A DNA stretch of 26,519 nt, from assembly GCA_021162685.1 (NCBI GenBank), contig JAGGYF010000041.1, positions 1-26,519 of the forward strand. The letters are read 5' to 3'. Under the pieces are notes generated by a model. The model made no database searches. It was not told the DNA's origin and saw nothing but the letters and a program-made list of their open reading frames with translations. Positions 2,904 to 25,545 of this stretch are shown one piece after another; the stretch's first letter is position 1, and every line of letters begins with the position of its first letter. Both the position numbers and the translations under genes were made by a program. The DNA is from Candidatus Iainarchaeum sp. (lineage in GTDB: Archaea > B1Sed10-29 > WALL01).

Positions 2904-4139
2904 ATGGAAAAACTGAAGCCAACAAAAAATGAAGTGGAGAAAGAAAAAGCGATTGTAGAGAAGATTATAGGGCTCATAAAAGAGGTATCTGGAAGAGATG
3001 CAATGCTTGTTGGCTCAATAGCAAAGAATACTGCATTGCGCGGGGACAAAGACATTGACATATTCATATTATTCCCAAAAAGCATACCAAGAAAACAACT
3101 TGAAGAAGAAGGCCTATCAATTGGCAGGAAGGTTTGTAAACTACTTGGGGTGAAGCCAAGACTAAAATATGCAGAACATCCATATACCTGCACAACTGTT
3201 GATGGATATGATGTAGATATTGTACCATGCTATAAAATAAAGATGGGTGAAAAGATCATTTCCGCTGTTGATAGGAGCCCATTACATACAGAATACATAA
3301 AAAAGCACCTGAAAAATACTGATGATGCAAGGATGTTGAAGTATTTCATGAAAAAGATTGGCGTATATGGCGCAGAGATAGAAACCCATGGCTTTTCTGG
3401 ATATCTATGCGAACTTTTGGTTTTGCATTATGGCTCATTTGAAAATGTCCTCAAGGCAGCAAGCAGATGGGAGAGGGGAAAGCGTATTGACATTGAAGGA
3501 AAAAGCAATGAAAGATTTAATGCACCGCTTGTTGTTATTGATCCAGTTGATCCACATAGGAATGTTGCTGCTGCTGTTAGTGAACAAAAACTTTGCGAGT
3601 TTATTCTACTGGCACGCTATTATCTTAAACACAAGACAATACCAAAGAAAGCAAAGATTATGAAAAAACGTGGAAAGATATATGTTGTAGAATGGGCACT
3701 GAAAAAGGAGGAGGTTAAAGAGATATTATGGTCTCAACTTGAAAGATTCCAAGATAAGGTAGTAAGACATCTAAATTTCCATGAATTACATTGCATTGAC
3801 TCAATGATTTGGACTGACGCAAAAACAAAGGCGCAATTATTAGTTGAATTAGAGGTATGGGACATGCCTCCTATAAATGACCACTGGGGACCAAGGGTGT
3901 ATGATATTGAACACTCAAAACTATTCATTGAGAAATATGGGAAGGTCATGGTGAGGAAGAACAGGCTTGTAACAGAGAAGAGGAGAGAGTATCCAACTGC
4001 AAAAGGCTTGCTCAAGGATCTCCTAAAAGAAGTCCCATCACACCTAAAAAGGAAAAAGTGGACAATAAAGAAAGGTAATGCTGCAAGGGCAACTGAGATA
4101 TGGCAGATATATAGTAAAAAATTCTGGAATCTAAAATAG
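2904..4139 (+). CDS. cca: Archaeal class I CCA-adding tRNA nucleotidyltransferase
   Basis: GSIAKNTALRGDKDIDIF, YAEHPY, VDIVPCY, SAVDRSPLH, GFSGYLCELL, DPVDPHRNVAAA. Start at ATG 2904 (or 2895) is more plausible than 2874. Confidence 0.96.
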   Translation: MEKLKPTKNEVEKEKAIVEKIIGLIKEVSGRDAMLVGSIAKNTALRGDKDIDIFILFPKSIPRKQLEEEGLSIGRKVCKLLGVKPRLKYAEHPYTCTTVDGYDVDIVPCYKIKMGEKIISAVDRSPLHTEYIKKHLKNTDDARMLKYFMKKIGVYGAEIETHGFSGYLCELLVLHYGSFENVLKAASRWERGKRIDIEGKSNERFNAPLVVIDPVDPHRNVAAAVSEQKLCEFILLARYYLKHKTIPKKAKIMKKRGKIYVVEWALKKEEVKEILWSQLERFQDKVVRHLNFHELHCIDSMIWTDAKTKAQLLVELEVWDMPPINDHWGPRVYDIEHSKLFIEKYGKVMVRKNRLVTEKRREYPTAKGLLKDLLKEVPSHLKRKKWTIKKGNAARATEIWQIYSKKFWNLK

Positions 4140-4152
4140 TTAGGGGGTTAGT

Positions 4153-5415
4153 ATGGAATTCAAGAAGATTTGTGATATAAAGCCAGGAGAGCATGTCAAG
4201 ATCAGGGGATGGGTGTATAGGCATAGAGTTGGGAAGGATGTTGTATTTATCGTATTGAGAGACAGTTCTGGAATAGTACAATGTACATCAAAAGGAAAAA
4301 CCTACAATACTGCAGAAGAGCTTTCAATTGAGAGCTCTGTGATTATAGAAGGAGATGTTGTAGAAGATAAGAGAGCGCCGACAGGAATGGAAGTAAAAGT
4401 TAGTGGGATAGAGGTTGTGCATAAAGCAGAGCGCTTCCCTATCACAAAGGACCAGAGCAAAGAATTCCTCAGAAATGTAAGACACCTCTGGTTACGCTCA
4501 CAATACATGACAAACATAATGAAGGTGCGTTCAACAGTTTTTGATGCAATACATGATTATTATAGGAGCAATGGATACTACGAATTTCAATCCCCTATAT
4601 TGACAACAAATGCGTGTGAGGGTGGAACAACATTATTCAAAGTTGATTACTATGGAAAGGTCGCATATCTCGCACAGAGTTGGCAACTATATGCAGAAGC
4701 AATGATATTCGGATTGGAAAAGATATACACTATTGCACCAAGTTTCCGAGCAGAAAAATCAAGAACAGTTAGGCACCTTTCTGAGTATTGGCACTCAGAG
4801 ATGGAAGCAGCATGGATGGAGTTTGATGATTGTATAAAAGTAGCTGAGGAGCTTGTCTCACATATTGTTCAAACAGCAATAAAGAAGAACAAGAAGGAGT
4901 TAGAGGCACTTGGTACTGATATTGGAAAGTTAGAAAAGGTAAAGCCTCCATTTCCAAGAATAACATATGAAGAGGTATTAGAGCTGCTGAAAGAGGACGG
5001 GCTCAATGTCCCATGGGGAAAGGACCTCAGAACAATTGAGGAGCAGGCGCTTATGAAACACTACGAGAAACCTCTATTTGTTACACACTACCCAGAAGAG
5101 ATAAAAGCATTCTACATGAAAAGGGCTGAAAATCCAAAACTTGTACTTGGATTTGACCTCATCGCTCCGCATGTTGGAGAAATCATAGGAGGAAGTGAAA
5201 GGGAGAACAACATAGAGCTGATGAAACAACGACTGAAAAAGGATAAAGTACCATTGGAGAACTACGAGTGGTATTTTGATACAAGAAGGTATGGTGCTGT
5301 GCCTCATTCTGGATTTGGCATGGGGGTAGAGAGGGTTGTTCAGTGGATATGTAACCTTGAGACAATACAGGATGCAATAGGTTTTCCAAGAACTATGGAC
5401 CGTATTTATCCATAG
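4153..5415 (+). CDS. asnS: Asparagine--tRNA ligase
   Basis: OB-fold start (IRGWV...FIVLRD), CEGGTTLF, YLAQSWQLY, motif 2 FRAEKSRTVRHLSEYW, KAFYM, GEIIGGSERE, motif 3 PHSGFGMGVER. Confidence 0.92.
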   Translation: MEFKKICDIKPGEHVKIRGWVYRHRVGKDVVFIVLRDSSGIVQCTSKGKTYNTAEELSIESSVIIEGDVVEDKRAPTGMEVKVSGIEVVHKAERFPITKDQSKEFLRNVRHLWLRSQYMTNIMKVRSTVFDAIHDYYRSNGYYEFQSPILTTNACEGGTTLFKVDYYGKVAYLAQSWQLYAEAMIFGLEKIYTIAPSFRAEKSRTVRHLSEYWHSEMEAAWMEFDDCIKVAEELVSHIVQTAIKKNKKELEALGTDIGKLEKVKPPFPRITYEEVLELLKEDGLNVPWGKDLRTIEEQALMKHYEKPLFVTHYPEEIKAFYMKRAENPKLVLGFDLIAPHVGEIIGGSERENNIELMKQRLKKDKVPLENYEWYFDTRRYGAVPHSGFGMGVERVVQWICNLETIQDAIGFPRTMDRIYP

Positions 5416-19764: not shown

Positions 19765-20266
19765 GTGACTCTATCTCATCTGCGAGTTGTTTTATCCTTT
19801 TCAATACTGGGCTGTTTTTCCCAAGTTTTCTCTCAAATTTTTTCAGGGTCTCATCAATGCTCACAACCTTATTTCCCATAACGATATTGTCTGCATGTGC
19901 TATAATCTTTTCCTCAATAGTTACTGGAACCATATCTCTTTCTGGCAATCCCAACTGTTTTGCCTCTTCTGCAGTTATCCCTGCTCCTATATGTCTCTCG
20001 GCGACATCAGCGAACTTTGGGAGACCACGCGCTCGTAGTATCTCTGCTCCTATTACACCATGGTCAATGCCATGTGACCTGCTCCTTCCTATGTCATGAA
20101 GCAGTGCTGCTATCCTGACAAAATCTACATCAACGTTAATACCATTTGGTAGTATGTGATTTGCAATCCTAACTGCCTCTCTTGCAACTGTTTTTGAATG
20201 CTCAATAACATTCTCTGGAACGCCTTCTTCCCTGAGAATAAGAAGTGCTTCATCCTCTGTTATCAT
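19757..20266 (-). CDS. HD-domain phosphohydrolase (TIGR00295-like)
   Basis: VIEHS, ALLHDIGRS..HG..HG..GAEIL, AERHIGAGIT, EEKIIAHADN. Coupled to tfe by an ATGA overlap. Confidence 0.9.
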   Translation of the reverse strand: MITEDEALLILREEGVPENVIEHSKTVAREAVRIANHILPNGINVDVDFVRIAALLHDIGRSRSHGIDHGVIGAEILRARGLPKFADVAERHIGAGITAEEAKQLGLPERDMVPVTIEEKIIAHADNIVMGNKVVSIDETLKKFERKLGKNSPVLKRIKQLADEIESLM

Positions 20267-20871
20267 TTTTTCCCCTTTCTACGTGCCTTCTTCTTAGTTG
20301 TCTTCTTTTTCTTTGTGGTCTTCTTCTTTGCCTTCTTCTTAGTTGTTTTCTTTTTCTTCTTTGGTTTCAGTCGCTCTATTAGTTCCTCTATCTCCTTAAT
20401 ATCCTGCACAACTTCTTTGATTGCAGATTTGTTATCAATAATCCTTAATTCTCCACCACAATCAGGACACTTAAAATCATATTCAACAGCAAGCTCAAAC
20501 GGCAACTTCTCGCATTTATTGTCACATTCATAGAATACATAACTAGATTCGTAATCCAACTTGTCCCTGAGTTCATCAAGTTTTTGTATAAGGTGGTTCC
20601 TAACGATCTCTGCTATCTTATCGCTCCTTGCATACCATGTATATGTATACCAATTTGTCTTTTGGTTCTTCTCCCTATCGTATGCAACAAGTCCTATATA
20701 GTGTAGTTGATTAAGAACAGAACGAACAGTATTGAGTTTCAGCTTTGTCCTCTCAGATATCTTCTCATCAATAACTGGCTTTTGGCATGCCTCTAATACA
20801 GCAACACCATTCTTGCCAACAATCTCTTCAAGAAACCTGCGGATTTGTCTGCTAGATATTTTAATTGCCAT
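20263..20871 (-). CDS. tfe: Transcription factor E (TFE/TFIIE-alpha) with Lys-rich C-terminal tail
   Basis: wHTH DEKISERTKLKLNTVRSVLNQL, NWYTYTW, Zn ribbon FYEC...FELAVEYDFKCPDCGGEL..IDN, followed by a KKKKKTTKKKA tail. Confidence 0.93.
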   Translation of the reverse strand: MAIKISSRQIRRFLEEIVGKNGVAVLEACQKPVIDEKISERTKLKLNTVRSVLNQLHYIGLVAYDREKNQKTNWYTYTWYARSDKIAEIVRNHLIQKLDELRDKLDYESSYVFYECDNKCEKLPFELAVEYDFKCPDCGGELRIIDNKSAIKEVVQDIKEIEELIERLKPKKKKKTTKKKAKKKTTKKKKTTKKKARRKGKK

Positions 20872-20965: not shown

Positions 20966-21071
20966 GGGCCTGTAGCTCAGTCTGCTTTCGGTCATTAAGA
21001 CTGAATGCCTGAAATGGCAGAGCACGAGGCTCTTAACCTCGGTGTCGCGGGTTCAAATCCCGTCAGGCCCT
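20966..21071 (+). tRNA. tRNA-Lys(CTT) with 32-nt D-loop intron (20983-21014)
   Basis: Acceptor GGGCCTG/CAGGCCC, anticodon arm CGAGG-CTCTTAA-CCTCG, T arm GCGGG-TTCAAAT-CCCGT. Removing 20983-21014 restores D arm GCTC-AGTCTGGCA-GAGC. Confidence 0.92.
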
Positions 21072-21074
21072 TAT

Positions 21075-21185
21075 GCGCCTGTAGTCTAGTCTGGTTAGGA
21101 CTCAAGCTTGCCAAACAAAAAGCCTCTGAGACACAGAGGAAGATGCAAAGAGCTTGCGGCCCGGGTTCAAATCCCGGCAGGCGCA
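21075..21185 (+). tRNA. tRNA-Gly(GCC) with 37-nt canonical 37/38 intron (21114-21150)
   Basis: Acceptor GCGCCTG/CAGGCGC-A, anticodon arm CAAGC-TTGCCA|A-GCTTG, BHB central helix TTGC/GCAA, intron hairpin CCTCTG/CAGAGG. Confidence 0.93.
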
Positions 21186-21223: not shown

Positions 21224-22855
21224 ATGAAAAATGTTGTTATTCTCCTGTTGCTGTTAGCAGGTATTTGTTCAGCACAGGGTTTCCAGGTGAGTAACGTAGG
21301 ATATGCAAACATAACAATGGTGATCTCTGGTGAAGCTTCAAAAGACCAAATAGTTTATGTGCCAGCAACAGACTCCAGACAAACTGTTGAATTTCCAAAA
21401 GGATTAGATATAAAAAAGGACGAGTATGGGAATAATTACATCATAGTAAATGGTCCATATTCCTACACTTTTAAGATAAGAGTTAATGGGATGAGACCAA
21501 TCATTACAAGGGACCAATCATTCCCAATAAGTGAGAAGAGGCTTGAGGAATACCTCAGGGACAGCAACTATGTTGTTGTTAGTGACCCTGACACACAGAA
21601 GTGGGCCAGAAGCATAACATCAAGATCAGGAAGTGTGCTTGAGGCAATGACAGACCTCATGCTCTGGGTTAATTCATACGCCACATACGACCAAAACTAT
21701 GGCGGTTCTCTACTATCAAGCAAAGAGGTTTTGAAAACGAGAAAGGGATGGTGTGGAGAATTCTCAAATCTCTATACAGCAATGGCTCGCTATCTGAACA
21801 TACCTACAAGGATAACCACTGGGATGATATATACTGGTTCAAGATGGGTGAGACATGGGTGGGCAGAGAGTTATGTGAATGGAGCATGGGTGCCAGTTGA
21901 TGGAACATATGGTGAGATCGGCCATATAAACGCCCTCCACGTGAAATTATATTCTGCACCAACCTATCTATTCTACTTGCTCCCAGACACAGTAGAAAGA
22001 ATAACAATAACTGACTTTGAGGTGGCACCATATGACCCACCCATAGAAGTGGAAGCAAATCTCTCCTCTGAAGTCGTTGCTCCAAGGAGTATATTTTATC
22101 TAAGGATGAATGTAACAAATAAAGGAAAGAGTATATTTATGCCAACATACTACGCACAAAAAACTGTTGGCATAGAACTTGTTGATGAATTCAGGAAAAG
22201 TGTTATACTGCACCCAAATGAAACAAAACAACTTGAGTGGAAATTTATAGCGCCGTTTGGAGAACGTGACAAGTACTATGTTATGCTTGGTGGTCCTGGT
22301 GTTGAGATGAAATTTCCGCTCATTGTTGATCCGAATGCAAAAGCAGAATTGGAGGAAGGATTTGATATCTCTGGAGTATTCAATCACATAGAAGGGAATG
22401 AGTTGGTCATAGAGTTCACAGTTGAAAACACAGGTAATAGAAATCTTAGAGACGTTGTAGTTAGTGTAATAACTGATAGACTTGGTACCCAGCAGAGAAC
22501 AATTGAATTAAGAGTTGGTGAGAAAAAACATATGTCGTTCAAATATCCTGTGAGCGAGGGAGTATACTCATTTGAGATACGCGTGGAAAAAGACGGTAAA
22601 ATAAAGAACAGTTTTGGCACTGCAATAGTGCCAAAAACAGAGGCAAAACCAGAGGAAAGTTTATTAAACTCAATAATTAAATATCTATACCTGAACGCGC
22701 CTACACTCTTCCTCATATTTGTAATTGGTGTGGCTGGTGTTGTCCTTCTGATATTATTTGTACCAACAATAGAGGGACCCAAAACGCCGTTTGGAGAAAA
22801 GGAGGAGTGGGAAAAACTATTAAAACTAGAAAAGAAAAAAGAAGAGCGGCCATAG
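21224..22855 (+). CDS. Secreted, membrane-anchored transglutaminase-like (Cys-His-Asp) protein with Ig/CARDB domains
   Basis: Signal peptide, GWCGEFSNLYTAMARYLNIPTRITTG, RHGWAESY, WVPVDGT, VENTGNRNL CARDB-like unit, C-terminal TM. Confidence 0.9.
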   Translation: MKNVVILLLLLAGICSAQGFQVSNVGYANITMVISGEASKDQIVYVPATDSRQTVEFPKGLDIKKDEYGNNYIIVNGPYSYTFKIRVNGMRPIITRDQSFPISEKRLEEYLRDSNYVVVSDPDTQKWARSITSRSGSVLEAMTDLMLWVNSYATYDQNYGGSLLSSKEVLKTRKGWCGEFSNLYTAMARYLNIPTRITTGMIYTGSRWVRHGWAESYVNGAWVPVDGTYGEIGHINALHVKLYSAPTYLFYLLPDTVERITITDFEVAPYDPPIEVEANLSSEVVAPRSIFYLRMNVTNKGKSIFMPTYYAQKTVGIELVDEFRKSVILHPNETKQLEWKFIAPFGERDKYYVMLGGPGVEMKFPLIVDPNAKAELEEGFDISGVFNHIEGNELVIEFTVENTGNRNLRDVVVSVITDRLGTQQRTIELRVGEKKHMSFKYPVSEGVYSFEIRVEKDGKIKNSFGTAIVPKTEAKPEESLLNSIIKYLYLNAPTLFLIFVIGVAGVVLLILFVPTIEGPKTPFGEKEEWEKLLKLEKKKEERP

Positions 22856-22919
22856 TCTAGTCTGGTTAGGACAGTGGCCTTCCAAGCCACTGACCCGGGT
22901 TCAAATCCCGGTGGCCGCA
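22846..22919 (+). tRNA. tRNA-Gly(TCC)
   Basis: Acceptor GCGGCCA/TGGCCGC-A, anticodon arm GTGGC-CTTCCAA-GCCAC, T arm CCGGG-TTCAAAT-CCCGG. Confidence 0.96.
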
Positions 22920-22925
22920 TATGTT

Positions 22926-22999
22926 GAGGCGGTAGCTCAGCCCGGGAGAGCGCCAGGCTGAAGACCTGGGTGTCGGGGGTTCGAATCCCTCCCGCCTCA
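22926..22999 (+). tRNA. tRNA-Phe(GAA)
   Basis: Acceptor GAGGCGG/CCGCCTC-A, anticodon arm CCAGG-CTGAAGA-CCTGG, T loop TTCGAAT. Confidence 0.95.
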
Positions 23000-23022
23000 C
23001 TTCTTGTTCTCAAAAGATTATA

Positions 23023-23036
23023 GAAAACTTTAAATA
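23023..23036 (+). promoter_or_regulatory. BRE-TATA promoter for the Lys-rich micro-gene
   Basis: GAAAAC-TTTAAATA matches the archaeal BRE/TATA consensus and lies about 70 nt upstream of GTG 23105. Confidence 0.6.
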
Positions 23037-23104
23037 CCCAAAGGGTTTAATTTGGTTTAGTTCTTTTGTTGAACGTGCGGAACAAGAAATGGGAGGTGAA
23101 TGTT

Positions 23105-23221
23105 GTGCCGGCAAGGAAGAAAAAGAAGACAACTAAGAAGAAGAAAGCAACAAAGAAGAAGACAAAGAAGAAGACCACAAAGAAAAAGAAGACAACTAAG
23201 AAGAAGAAAAGGAAGAAGTGA
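23105..23221 (+). CDS. Unannotated 38-aa Lys/Thr-rich basic peptide (histone H1-tail/protamine-like composition)
   Basis: SD GGAGGTGA, GTG start, MPARKKKKTTKKKKATKKKTKKKTTKKKKTTKKKKRKK* (24 K + 2 R). Upstream TATA and downstream hairpin. Confidence 0.85.
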   Translation: MPARKKKKTTKKKKATKKKTKKKTTKKKKTTKKKKRKK

Positions 23222-23232
23222 GAATCCTCATA

Positions 23233-23256
23233 AGCCGGTCGCATGAGTGACCGGCT
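23233..23256. terminator. GC-rich hairpin between convergent genes (terminator or 3' stability element)
   Basis: AGCCGGTCGC-ATGA-GTGACCGGCT, a 10-bp stem with one G-U pair. Confidence 0.6.
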
Positions 23257-23257
23257 G

Positions 23258-23608
23258 CTATTTATTTATGAGCATATACAACCCTGCCAGAAGTATTAAT
23301 AACAGCAGAACAGCAAATGCCAGAAAAAGCGCCTTTTCCACTGTTTTCTCCTGTTTTTTCATCTTTTTCTCAACAGTGGTTGCAACAGCCCTACCCTGCT
23401 CCACATCCCTTCTTATGCTTGCGCCAAATTGTTTTGAGAGTATATCCTCATCTACATGGGTCTTCTTTTTACCCTTTTTGATGTTTGATATCTCCCTTGC
23501 AATCTCTTGCGCTGAATAGCCCTTGTCCATAAAGTATTGCATAATCTGAGATTCGCTTATTCCCTTATCCATGAACGTCCTAAGTGTTTCCTTATCGCTT
23601 TCATCCAT
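23258..23608 (-). CDS. Hypothetical tail-anchored protein
   Basis: Likely start MDESDK (GGTG upstream). N-terminal KGISESQIMQYFMDKGYSAQEI motif and C-terminal TM. Confidence 0.7.
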   Translation of the reverse strand: MDESDKETLRTFMDKGISESQIMQYFMDKGYSAQEIAREISNIKKGKKKTHVDEDILSKQFGASIRRDVEQGRAVATTVEKKMKKQEKTVEKALFLAFAVLLLLILLAGLYMLINK

Positions 23609-23616
23609 CAAAACAC

Positions 23617-24201
23617 CTATGTGCATTTGAATCCGTCTGGTAACGTGTTCTCGCTAGTTACTACATATGTTTTTCCCTTCTCAAAATTACCAACACAAAC
23701 AATCTGTTTCTCCCATCCTGGGTATATCGTAACCTTTGGTGTGCATGTTGCTCCATCAACACTAAACTCTGATTCTGGTAATGTCGTACCCTCCATGTTC
23801 TTTATGCCAAGCACCACCTCATTATTAGAGCATGAGATAACTCTTACAGCAATGCCCCATTTCACTGTTGGTTTTGATATGTCCTGTAATGCTTGCCAAG
23901 CTGTTGGTCCAAACCATGCTACAACACTGATAATAATTCCCACCAGACAGATTATAAGTATGACCATGGGTAACGACGTATGGAACCTTCTCCTTTTCAC
24001 CATTGGTATGACGATGTCTCTCTGCGGTATCTCCTCTTTTTTCTTCTTTGGCATATTTTTTATGGTCTCCTCTGCATTCAATATCTCTTCCTTTATCTCA
24101 TTACGGGAATAGCCGAGAACCCTAAATATCTTTATGATCTTCTCATCTGGTTCTCCTCTTATCTTCATGTCAACAATACGTTTTCTGTCCTTTGGGTCCA
24201 T
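23617..24201 (-). CDS. Hypothetical single-pass membrane protein with Cys-containing beta-rich C-terminal domain
   Basis: Likely start MDPKDRK at 24201, since the longer ORF overlaps serS and its promoter. Motif RGEPDEKIIKIFRVLGYSRNEI, central TM, four Cys downstream. Confidence 0.7.
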   Translation of the reverse strand: MDPKDRKRIVDMKIRGEPDEKIIKIFRVLGYSRNEIKEEILNAEETIKNMPKKKKEEIPQRDIVIPMVKRRRFHTSLPMVILIICLVGIIISVVAWFGPTAWQALQDISKPTVKWGIAVRVISCSNNEVVLGIKNMEGTTLPESEFSVDGATCTPKVTIYPGWEKQIVCVGNFEKGKTYVVTSENTLPDGFKCT

Positions 24202-24276
24202 ATATCTAAAACTATGTGCTCTCTGTTTAAAAATATAACATTTTATATAAAGGCATGAATAATATATGGGGGTAAC

Positions 24277-25545
24277 ATGCTTGACATAAAAATGATAAGG
24301 GAGCACCCTGAGATTGTTTCCAATGACCTAAAAAAGAGGGGTCTCACTACAGAGCTACTTGACAAAGTTATTGATATGGACAAGAAATGGAGAGAGTACG
24401 TAAAAAAGAGGGATGAACTAAAACATAGAAAAAATGTTGTGACATCTGAAATTGCTGATATGAAAAAAAGGGGGGAAGATGCAACCAAAGAGATAAATGA
24501 GATGAAAGAAATAAACAGGAAGATTGAAGAGATTGATAAAAAAACAAAAGAACTGCTTAGAGAAAGGGATACATTGCTGATGAGGATCCCAAATATACTA
24601 CATGATAGCGTGCCAATAGGTAGGGATGATAAGGATAACGTTGAGATCAGAAGATGGGGGAAGCCAAAACAATTCACATTTGAAGTAAGAAATCATGGAG
24701 AGCTTGCTGAGTCGCTTGGTGTTGGAGATTGGGAGCATGCAGCAAAAATCGCTGGCGCTGGTTTTGTGTACCTAAAAGGGGCGCTTGCTCTACTTGACCA
24801 GGCACTTATACAATTTGCCATTCATGAACTCATCAAGAAACACTACACCCCCGTCTTCCCTCCATTCATGATGAGGAGGAAACCCTATGAGGGTGTAACA
24901 GACCTAGAAGATTTTGAGAACGTTATGTACAAAATAGAGGATGAGGATTTGTACATGATCGCGACATCAGAGCATCCTTTGGTAGCAATGTTTATGAATG
25001 AAGTCATAGCAGAGGAATCACTACCAATAAAGATGTGTGGTATCTCAGCAAACTTCAGAAAGGAAATTGGTTCACATGGAGTTGACACAAAAGGGTTGTT
25101 TAGAATGCATCAGTTCAACAAGGTTGAACAGATTATTCTATCAAAACCAGAAGAGTCATGGGAATATCATGAAGAACTAATAAAAAACGCAGAGGAGATA
25201 TTCCAAAAACTTGAACTTCCATATAGAGTAGTGAACGTCTGTACAGGGGATATAGGCACTGTTGCAGCTAAAAAATATGATTTAGAGGTGTGGTCGCCAA
25301 GACAGAATAGATATATTGAAGCGGTCTCTTGTTCTAACTGCACAGACTACCAAGCCAGAAGATTGAACATAAAGTATGGAAAGAGGGGTGGAGAAACAAA
25401 CCTTGTCCATACATTGAACAGCACTGCTATAGCAACATCAAGGGCAATGGTCGCAATTCTTGAGAACTTCCAAAATGAGGATGGAACTGTAACCATACCT
25501 AAGGCATTAAGGCCGTATATGCATGGCATAGATGTGATAAAATGA
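24277..25545 (+). CDS. serS: Serine--tRNA ligase (bacterial/standard type)
   Basis: MLDIKMIRE, IPNILHDSVPIG, LYMIATSEHPL, FRKEIGSHGVDTKGLFRMHQFNKVEQ, SCSNCTDYQARRL, HTLNSTAIATSR. Confidence 0.98.
   Translation: MLDIKMIREHPEIVSNDLKKRGLTTELLDKVIDMDKKWREYVKKRDELKHRKNVVTSEIADMKKRGEDATKEINEMKEINRKIEEIDKKTKELLRERDTLLMRIPNILHDSVPIGRDDKDNVEIRRWGKPKQFTFEVRNHGELAESLGVGDWEHAAKIAGAGFVYLKGALALLDQALIQFAIHELIKKHYTPVFPPFMMRRKPYEGVTDLEDFENVMYKIEDEDLYMIATSEHPLVAMFMNEVIAEESLPIKMCGISANFRKEIGSHGVDTKGLFRMHQFNKVEQIILSKPEESWEYHEELIKNAEEIFQKLELPYRVVNVCTGDIGTVAAKKYDLEVWSPRQNRYIEAVSCSNCTDYQARRLNIKYGKRGGETNLVHTLNSTAIATSRAMVAILENFQNEDGTVTIPKALRPYMHGIDVIK

Follow-up and report, generated by a model that had tools for sequence, protein, structure and literature searches.

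A stand-alone lysine/threonine mini-gene in Candidatus Iainarchaeum sp., a candidate free form of a basic tail module carried by transcription factors, MC1, and ribosomal proteins

The described proteins closest to the one considered here are low-complexity or polybasic proteins of several kinds. Linker histone H1 has a winged-helix globular domain and a Lys-rich C-terminal tail with S/TPKK-type motifs, and proteins of the H1/Hc2 type have spacers of the Ala/Pro type. Protamines are small, stand-alone, domain-free polycations that neutralize DNA charge; they are Arg-rich, eukaryotic, and sperm-specific. Among ribosomal proteins, eL41, bS22, and bL37 are tiny and polybasic (about 25-40 aa) and are often missed by gene callers; each has a fixed, alignable sequence and occurs in one copy per genome. 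Hc2 of Chlamydia is reported to vary in its number of lysine-rich pentamers and to be 165-237 aa long (PMC2848022). According to a 2018 review, no H1 homologues had been found in Archaea (PMC6136690). The literature searched gave no description of stand-alone poly-Lys genes, which small-protein catalogues such as sORFdb might contain (PMC11796252).

In this work, we analyzed a window of 26,519 nt, the whole stretch of contig JAGGYF010000041.1 of Candidatus Iainarchaeum sp. The source genome (G000 hereafter; 1.11 Mb, 45 contigs, 39.6% G+C, 98% complete) was compared within a set of 31 genomes of its phylum. Downstream of tRNA-Gly (22846-22919) and tRNA-Phe (22926-23000), the plus strand carries a compact unit. 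It begins with a BRE/TATA-like core (GAAAACTTTAAATA, 23023-23036), which was read from the sequence and is a candidate promoter. An 8-nt Shine-Dalgarno (SD) site (GGAGGTGA, 23092-23099) lies 5 nt upstream of a GTG start at 23105, and the coding sequence of a 38-aa Lys/Thr peptide extends over 23105-23221, including the TGA stop at 23219-23221. A G+C-rich hairpin of 10 bp followed by T-rich sequence (23233-23256) separates this mini-gene from a convergent gene for a 122-aa membrane protein (23258-23626, minus strand), the 3' end of which abuts the hairpin. This hairpin has seven G-C pairs and a folding energy of -25.4 kcal/mol (z = -5.2; none of 200 shuffles folds as well), and is probably a two-way terminator.

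The product, MPARKKKKTTKKKKATKKKTKKKTTKKKKTTKKKKRKK, has 24 Lys and 2 Arg among its 38 residues and neither Asp nor Glu. Blocks of three to four Lys alternate with one or two small spacer residues, mostly Thr, in a repeat of about five residues; at the DNA level, TRF finds 6.5 copies with a period of 15 nt, or five codons, in the coding sequence. No signal peptide or hydrophobic segment was identified in the peptide. With a default cut-off of 60 aa, the only ORF listed at this position is a Phe-rich one of 65 aa on the opposite strand (23047-23244). A first-pass annotation of this DNA had described a BRE-TATA element, an SD site, a GTG, 38 codons, a stop, and a hairpin, with 26 of 38 residues basic and none acidic, and an ORF track that showed only a Phe-rich antisense shadow; each element lies where it had been placed, and both the composition and the antisense ORF agree with that description. 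Among the sequencing runs searched, five DNA runs are listed as matching the locus (X1-X5), all labeled hydrothermal vent metagenome, X4 and X5 with a small share of words; no RNA run is among the matches. Contigs from runs X1-X4 are short, of low depth, and broken inside the repeat, and they hold no usable population variants.

Compared with the described systems, the peptide resembles the H1 C-terminal domain, Hc2/HctB, and AlgP of Pseudomonas, all of which are Lys-rich, acid-free, low-complexity repeats. The five-residue period (15 nt) is the same as that of the Hc2 pentamers, but these proteins are all much longer. The winged-helix domain of linker histone H1/H5 gave no Pfam match in the peptide, in which a 38-residue repeat leaves no room for it; S/TPKK motifs are absent, and the sole Pro is residue 2. 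The Pfam HC2/Hc1 models gave no match either, though the composition filter of HMMER suppresses true low-complexity matches too. Protamines are alike in being small, stand-alone, and domain-free, but the peptide has 2 Arg against 24 Lys and no Pfam protamine match. The tails of MC1 proteins in the phylum agree with the peptide in composition and style, with K3-4 blocks, spacers of TT, TV, or AT, and a terminus rich in R; the MC1 tail of G013, for example, ends in ...KKKTTKRRTTKKKKTTKKKTTKRKATKRKTTKRRRR and a second mini-gene of the source genome (C33a, on contig C33) ends in ...TTKKRTTTRKRRTRRR. Those tails are appended to a folded domain that Pfam assigns to MC1 (E = 9e-31 and 6e-28), whereas the 38-aa peptide has no domain at all and does not match the MC1 fold (PF05854). 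In size and charge the mini-genes are similar to eL41-type ribosomal proteins, from which they differ in their variable repeats and lengths, in the three copies found in G000, and in having no Pfam or NCBIfam match.

More generally, searches against Pfam (E up to 0.1) and NCBIfam assigned no family to the 38-aa peptide or to two further basic peptides encoded on contig C33. In a protein search among the relatives, even the matching tail of transcription factor E (TFE) in the same genome reached only E of about 1 against the 38-aa peptide, and a homologue search with a 44-aa peptide of G007 returned 5537 word candidates, none of which scored. Low complexity defeats homology tools, so the family proposed below rests on architecture and composition rather than on alignment statistics. 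The earlier suggestion of a protamine- or H1-like chromatin peptide holds as far as a Lys-rich, acid-free polycation is concerned, but homology to H1, Hc1/Hc2, or protamine is not supported by Pfam or NCBIfam. By its sequence, the peptide would be a Lys-rich polycationic nucleic-acid binder outside the H1, Hc2, protamine, MC1, and ribosomal protein families.

The first-pass annotation had proposed a pattern search in related archaeal genomes, and stand-alone K/T(V,A) mini-genes were found in at least 10 of the 31 genomes of the phylum (G000, G004, G007, G009, G010, G011, G012, G016, G018, and G020). They encode 38-103 aa with N-termini of the type M-[PVA]-[ATPM]-K. The copy in G004, a member of the same family as G000, encodes 47 aa (MPAKKKKTT...) from an ATG preceded by the SD site AGGAGGT; the copies of G009, G010, G011, G016, G018, and G020 encode 103, 56, 63, 100, 91, and 77 aa, respectively. 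The DNA pattern for KKKTTKKKK matched only G000 (four times), G007, and G012 among the 31 genomes, and its reversed control matched none of them. The G007 and G012 matches are stand-alone ORFs with a GAGGTG SD site, an ATG, and the start MVTKKK... (38-44 aa). A looser pattern, KKKxxKKKxxKKK, matched 24 of the 31 genomes, but its controls match too; for this census, we inspected 30 returned loci and 16 further regions, a subset of all matches.

The source genome has three stand-alone copies. The two on contig C33 both start with TTG: one (4136-4270; SD GGGGGTG) encodes 44 aa of K/R/T ending in RRR, and the other (4304-4522; SD GGAGGTG) encodes 72 aa with a short non-repeat N-terminus followed by a K/R/A tail. 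The region as a whole (C33 4083-4522, equivalent to L003 1411-1850) is an array of tandem basic mini-genes, and the N-terminus of the 72-aa peptide (MASKVTLSLTTKEATTLKRIIKK...), which has no Pfam match, looks like a strand and a helix before the basic tail.

Between G000 and G004, the promoter cores are nearly identical (ATAGAAAAGTTTAAATAC in G004 and ATAGAAAACTTTAAATAC at the mini-gene), and the codons CCG GCA follow the start in both, which indicates that the GTG of the mini-gene corresponds to the ATG of G004. Boxes of the type GAAAG(N)TTTTTAAAT lie at similar distances upstream of the copies in G007, G012, G020, and G016. The spacing between the GGAGG core and the start is 8 nt in the mini-gene and 7-11 nt in the other copies, as read off the printed sequences. 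We propose a family of genes with their own BRE/TATA, an SD-led start, at least 55% K+R, no acidic residues, a stop after the repeat, and a terminator; the mini-gene has the BRE/TATA, the SD-led start in the Lys frame, the terminator, and a stop directly after the repeat. The copies occupy non-syntenic positions across genomes: the syntenic tRNA loci of relatives hold no copy of the mini-gene, and the gaps of G000 that match the positions of the relatives' copies hold no basic mini-ORF. The idea of a hidden stand-alone gene that gene callers miss is borne out in that the copies keep promoter, SD site, start, and frame, and that their peptides are absent from a collection of 15 billion proteins (exact look-up, 0 of 10 present), an absence that differing start calls could also explain.

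A second copy of the module is present in the same window as the tail of a basal transcription factor. The gene at 20263-20871 on the minus strand encodes TFE, as shown by a Pfam match to TFIIE_alpha (E = 2.3e-18). It also matches NCBIfam TFE models with scores under their curated cut-offs (E = 1.7e-42 and 4.6e-38), and its C-terminal K/T tail (20263-20367, minus strand) ends in ...KPKKKKKTTKKKAKKKTTKKKKTTKKKARRKGKK. Positions 23135-23206 of the mini-gene and the DNA for this tail, about 2.7 kb apart, are identical at 68 of 72 nt, with an exact run of 44 nt and the same synonymous choices. Together, 23125-23233 and the TFE tail form an inverted repeat with arms of 109 nt that are 81% complementary and separated by 2756 nt. 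None of five TFE loci of the same family has a K/R-rich tail, and the TFEs of G007 and G019 carry different tails. Because the stand-alone form also occurs in genomes with a tail-less TFE, such as G004, the TFE tail was apparently copied from, or converted by, a mini-gene, and the transfer would thus have run from the mini-gene to TFE and not in reverse. The event, a copying or gene conversion that involved the mini-gene and the 3' end of TFE, would have been recent.

The same module is found on other proteins of the phylum. In G010, a K/T module is fused to the N-terminus of TFB, and a single-repeat TBP-like protein carries one in G005 (confirmed with Pfam) and in its G002 orthologue (by sequence reading). 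The basal transcription factors of the phylum repeatedly carry such basic tails. As to their extent, the N-terminal K/T/S-rich extension of the G010 TFB (L216 1384-2871) has about 190 residues, and the (KKKxx)n extensions at the N-termini of the TBP-like proteins (L214 1102-1779 in G005 and L236 in G002) have about 115. K/T modules were also found on MC1 in G017 and G018 (Pfam), and a K/R tail, in some cases closely resembling that of C33a, ends all ten MC1 genes found in the phylum; no MC1 gene was found in 13 genomes of the order to which G000 belongs, G000 included. K-rich tails of the same style occur on ribosomal proteins S3 and S19e, and, by sequence reading, on an L37Ae-like zinc-ribbon protein and on two proteins of G000 that are likely S19e and S12. 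Further partners are a PEP-utilising enzyme and membrane proteins. Another gene of G000 (C44 13542-14987, equivalent to L005 166-1608) encodes a 481-aa coiled-coil protein with weak SMC-like matches and a K/T-rich tail of this style at its end.

These patterns lead us to favor, with a probability of roughly 0.55, the reading that the mini-gene is a real translated gene, that its product is a nucleic-acid-binding polycation with DNA as the first candidate, and that it represents the free form of a lineage-wide tail module, the one put on basal transcription factors, MC1, and ribosomal proteins. The mini-gene would be separately transcribed and translated into a disorder-prone polycation of 38 residues. 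With 26 positive charges, no negative charge, and no hydrophobic core, such a peptide can hardly do other than bind polyanions. It would most likely bind the phosphate backbone of nucleic acids without sequence preference, and binding would then neutralize charge and bridge or stabilize the polymer, by analogy with the H1 C-terminal tail, protamines, and polyamines. That most fusion partners bind DNA or RNA is the basis for a function in nucleic-acid binding. The idea of nucleic-acid binding in the first-pass annotation is thus supported indirectly by the fusions to TFE, TFB, TBP, MC1, and ribosomal proteins; these fusions do not single out DNA, since ribosomal proteins, a PEP-utilising enzyme, and membrane proteins are also among the partners. 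Non-specific DNA binding appears most likely in view of the fusion partners and of the likeness to H1 tails, Hc2, and protamines, with RNA or the ribosome as the main alternative.

Under that alternative, the peptide is made but acts on RNA as a ribosome- or rRNA-associated filler or chaperone and not as a component of chromatin. The K-rich tails on S3 and S19e, and those read on the L37Ae-like protein and on the likely S19e and S12 of G000, are consistent with it, as are the size and charge that the peptide shares with eL41, bS22, and bL37. Unlike ribosomal proteins, the mini-genes vary between genomes in copy number, length (38-103 aa), and location, and their repeats have no fixed sequence; in addition, most fusion partners bind DNA (TFE, TFB, TBP, and MC1). 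On balance, we regard an RNA-acting peptide as rather unlikely, and it is the strongest of the competing explanations.

Even if the favored reading of a nucleic-acid-binding polycation is right, its role is probably a minor one. With genes for two tail-less histones, Alba, spermidine synthase, and pyruvoyl arginine decarboxylase, G000 has no evident use for a further polycation, and the peptide would be at most an accessory one, not a replacement. For the same reason, we dropped the ideas of a substitute for polyamines (spermidine synthase and the decarboxylase are present) and of a sole chromatin protein (the histones and Alba are present). A role as heat stabilizer is unsupported, as the match to the reverse gyrase model is confined to a topoisomerase-like part and lies under the cut-off. 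The Thr residues had been suggested as phosphorylation sites. Thr makes up 218 of 315 non-basic residues in the pooled family members (by our own division), but Val and Ala replace it freely, and Val (16) outnumbers Thr (15) in the G009 copy; since Thr is exchanged in this way, neither the hydroxyl nor, as a consequence, its phosphorylation seems to be required, and the case for phospho-sites is weak.

Whether the frame is translated at all deserves separate consideration. An open Lys frame alone is no evidence, because AAG-rich DNA has few stop codons; at the mini-gene, the +1 frame and two antisense frames are likewise open. The sequence GGAGGTGA occurs 19 times in the genome, about as often as base composition predicts (our own estimate), and only 5 of the 19 precede a long ORF, while a given start codon would have it within 10 nt by chance with a probability of about 1e-4 (our own estimate). 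SD sites of at least 6 nt precede 0.77% of random genome positions, 64 of the 824 first start codons of long ORFs, and 6 of 11 family members, two of these six being mutual orthologues. As open frames and the genome-wide frequency of GGAGGTGA are uninformative, the case must rest on comparison between genomes. All 11 members have an open Lys frame, with an SD-led start in 10 of them. Five members also have a fully open +1 frame, which in the other six is closed over part of the core; SD-led starts in this frame are limited to the mini-gene (spacing 2-3 nt) and G011 (weak 4-mers). No member has a fully open +2 frame, and only 1 of 33 antisense frames examined has a 4-nt SD match. Conservation of frame and SD site in close relatives was one of the points on which the first-pass annotation had let its proposal stand or fall, and it is what we observed.

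The differences between copies likewise point to the Lys frame. The orthologues of G007 and G012 differ 1, 0, and 11 times at the first, second, and third codon positions (10 synonymous and 1 non-synonymous changes), and the mini-gene and the G004 copy differ 2, 1, and 13 times; these counts come from a protein-guided alignment, which favors synonymous matches, and a plain DNA alignment gives the same picture. Each of the five indels in the plain DNA alignment of G007 and G012 has a length divisible by 3. Taken together, 13 members contain 428 K, 218 T, 57 R, 42 V, and 27 A with a single acidic residue (D+E = 1); 12 of the 13 have none, and K+R ranges from 0.55 to 0.68. Because Glu is one transition away from Lys, the absence of Glu indicates selection on charge. 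AAG accounts for 20 of the 24 Lys codons in the mini-gene, compared with 45% genome-wide (p = 1.5e-4), and for 16 of 21 in the TFE tail, which is bona fide coding sequence with the same bias. A-runs have at most 5 nt in the mini-gene and at most 6 nt in the TFE tail; avoidance of slippery poly-A fits the AAG bias and the short A-runs, and so does a repeat that originated by slippage.

It is conceivable, then, that the frame is not translated and that the DNA is a purine-rich repeat of 15 nt produced by slippage, or else a defunct partial duplicate of the 3' end of TFE, serving at most as spacer or terminator for 23258-23626. Several of the observations above would fit: the composition of AAG-rich DNA keeps more than one frame open, replication slippage could produce both the AAG bias and the repeat structure, the genome frequency of GGAGGTGA is not above chance, the TFE tail is identical at 68 of 72 nt, and the T-rich antisense strand follows the stop and hairpin of the convergent gene. 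What counts against it is that promoter core, SD site, start, and CCG GCA are common to G004, whose TFE is tail-less; that the start in the Lys frame is SD-led in 10 of 11 members; that differences fall on third positions, indels comprise whole codons, and Glu is absent; and that, among the matches listed in a wider scan (below), equivalent units with terminators occur in unrelated lineages. An untranslated repeat is therefore an unlikely explanation in our judgment, more so than a peptide acting on RNA.

A polycation of this kind could also target another polyanion, such as polyphosphate, or the host cell membrane, as the archaeon is presumably host-attached. Pseudomonas AlgP, which is H1-like and Lys-rich, has reportedly been linked to the spacing of polyphosphate granules (PMC9239181), but the peptide lacks both a signal peptide and a hydrophobic segment and the fusion partners point to nucleic acid, so we consider such a target improbable. 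Least probable is that the product comes from the +1 frame, where ATG 23100 to 23246 would encode 48 aa rich in Arg and Gln, because the ATG, open frame, and SD site just upstream are offset by a distance of about 3 nt from the GGAGG core (compared with 7-11 nt in other members), by the lack of an SD-led start in 9 of 11 members and partial closure of the core in 6 of them, and by the fact that the third-position changes of the Lys frame would all be non-synonymous there.

Three other candidates were rejected on the layout of the locus. An amino-acid-sensing leader peptide or attenuator does not fit, as the ORF and hairpin are followed by the 3' end of the convergent gene 23258-23626. An element integrated at a tRNA gene would call for a duplicated tRNA-Phe end, and none is present downstream. 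The mini-gene as a split N-terminus of the neighboring membrane protein is on the wrong strand, and the similarity to a K-extended protein of G012 is non-significant (E = 0.11).

Comparable units are found beyond the phylum. In a scan for KKKTTKKKK with one genome per species, there were at least 120 stretches, with 122 ORF contexts among the matches listed, of which 45 are C-terminal tails of longer proteins. Another 22 stand alone cleanly, with no more than 80 aa, a K+R share of 55% or above, and no acidic residue, and 14 of these 22 have an SD site of at least 5 nt. By record title, the lineages among the matches listed include Woesearchaeota, Thermoplasmata, WOR-3, Omnitrophota, and Saganbacteria. 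Again among the matches listed, most stand-alone copies end in hairpin or oligo-T terminators, SD-led units of the form M[APV]xKKK...KKKK[RK] with terminators occur in unrelated MAGs, and one WOR-3 copy starts with MPAKKKKK. A metagenome scan for the start M-P-A-[KR]-KKKK-TT-K found seven stretches, two of them stand-alone (31 and 24 aa).

A broader and more tentative proposal is that small archaea and many uncultivated prokaryotes possess domain-free "tails in trans". These free poly-Lys/Thr peptides would serve as a gene-encoded chromatin polycation that is linker-histone- or protamine-like in its action yet unrelated to these proteins, and their coding sequence would be a mobile module that recombination grafts time and again onto DNA-binding proteins (TFE in G000, and TFB, TBP, and MC1 in relatives), with the 72-nt stretch as a fresh graft. 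We consider this possible but doubtful.

If the mini-genes are translated, archaeal and, it seems, bacterial proteomes leave out a whole class of peptides with abundant charge, and so do models of nucleic-acid neutralization and organization in tiny cells. Gene callers and HMM tools are blind to such products, and the practical lesson is that these genes are to be found by DNA patterns and architecture, not by alignment scores. The occurrence of one module both free and fused to TFE within about 2.7 kb is a natural experiment, which raises the question of whether a free polycation and a basic transcription-factor tail can replace each other and illustrates the acquisition of low-complexity tails.

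The scans also turned up other Lys-rich proteins. Tiny ORFs and tails in which a Cys cluster accompanies a run of poly-Lys, such as MGCGCCCGAKEPAKKKPAKKKPAKKKKK and MECCCCCKPKPKKTKKKAKKKK, were found at L238 (G005:C11), L245 (G024:C44), L112, L119, L132, and L187; they may form a class of their own, perhaps one that binds metal or is lipid-anchored. Two loci titled Woesearchaeota/Pacearchaeota (L088 5655-5831 and L115 1505-1732) encode proteins of 59 and 76 aa with no Pfam family, in which a conserved small N-domain (..RKPGYLYYVDxxGNVCEA..) is followed by a poly-Lys tail.

For the remainder of the locus, the 2.76-kb segment inside the inverted repeat contains three tRNA genes and a transglutaminase-like gene, and recombination within the inverted repeat would leave both reading frames open. 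The tRNA-Gly gene starts 10 nt before the stop codon of the gene for a 543-aa transglutaminase/CARDB protein (21224-22855). At 21075-21185, Rfam identifies a 111-nt tRNA of a size that suggests an intron, which ARAGORN does not call. Directly before it, 21043-21075 is similar to the T-arm and acceptor 3' end of the neighboring tRNAs (67-76% identity) and could be a tRNA fragment. On the other side of the mini-gene, the genes 23258-23626 and 23617-24306 (both on the minus strand) overlap by 10 nt and encode membrane-anchored proteins without a Pfam family, which have an N-terminal helical motif in common (30% identity over 64 aa, E = 7e-4).
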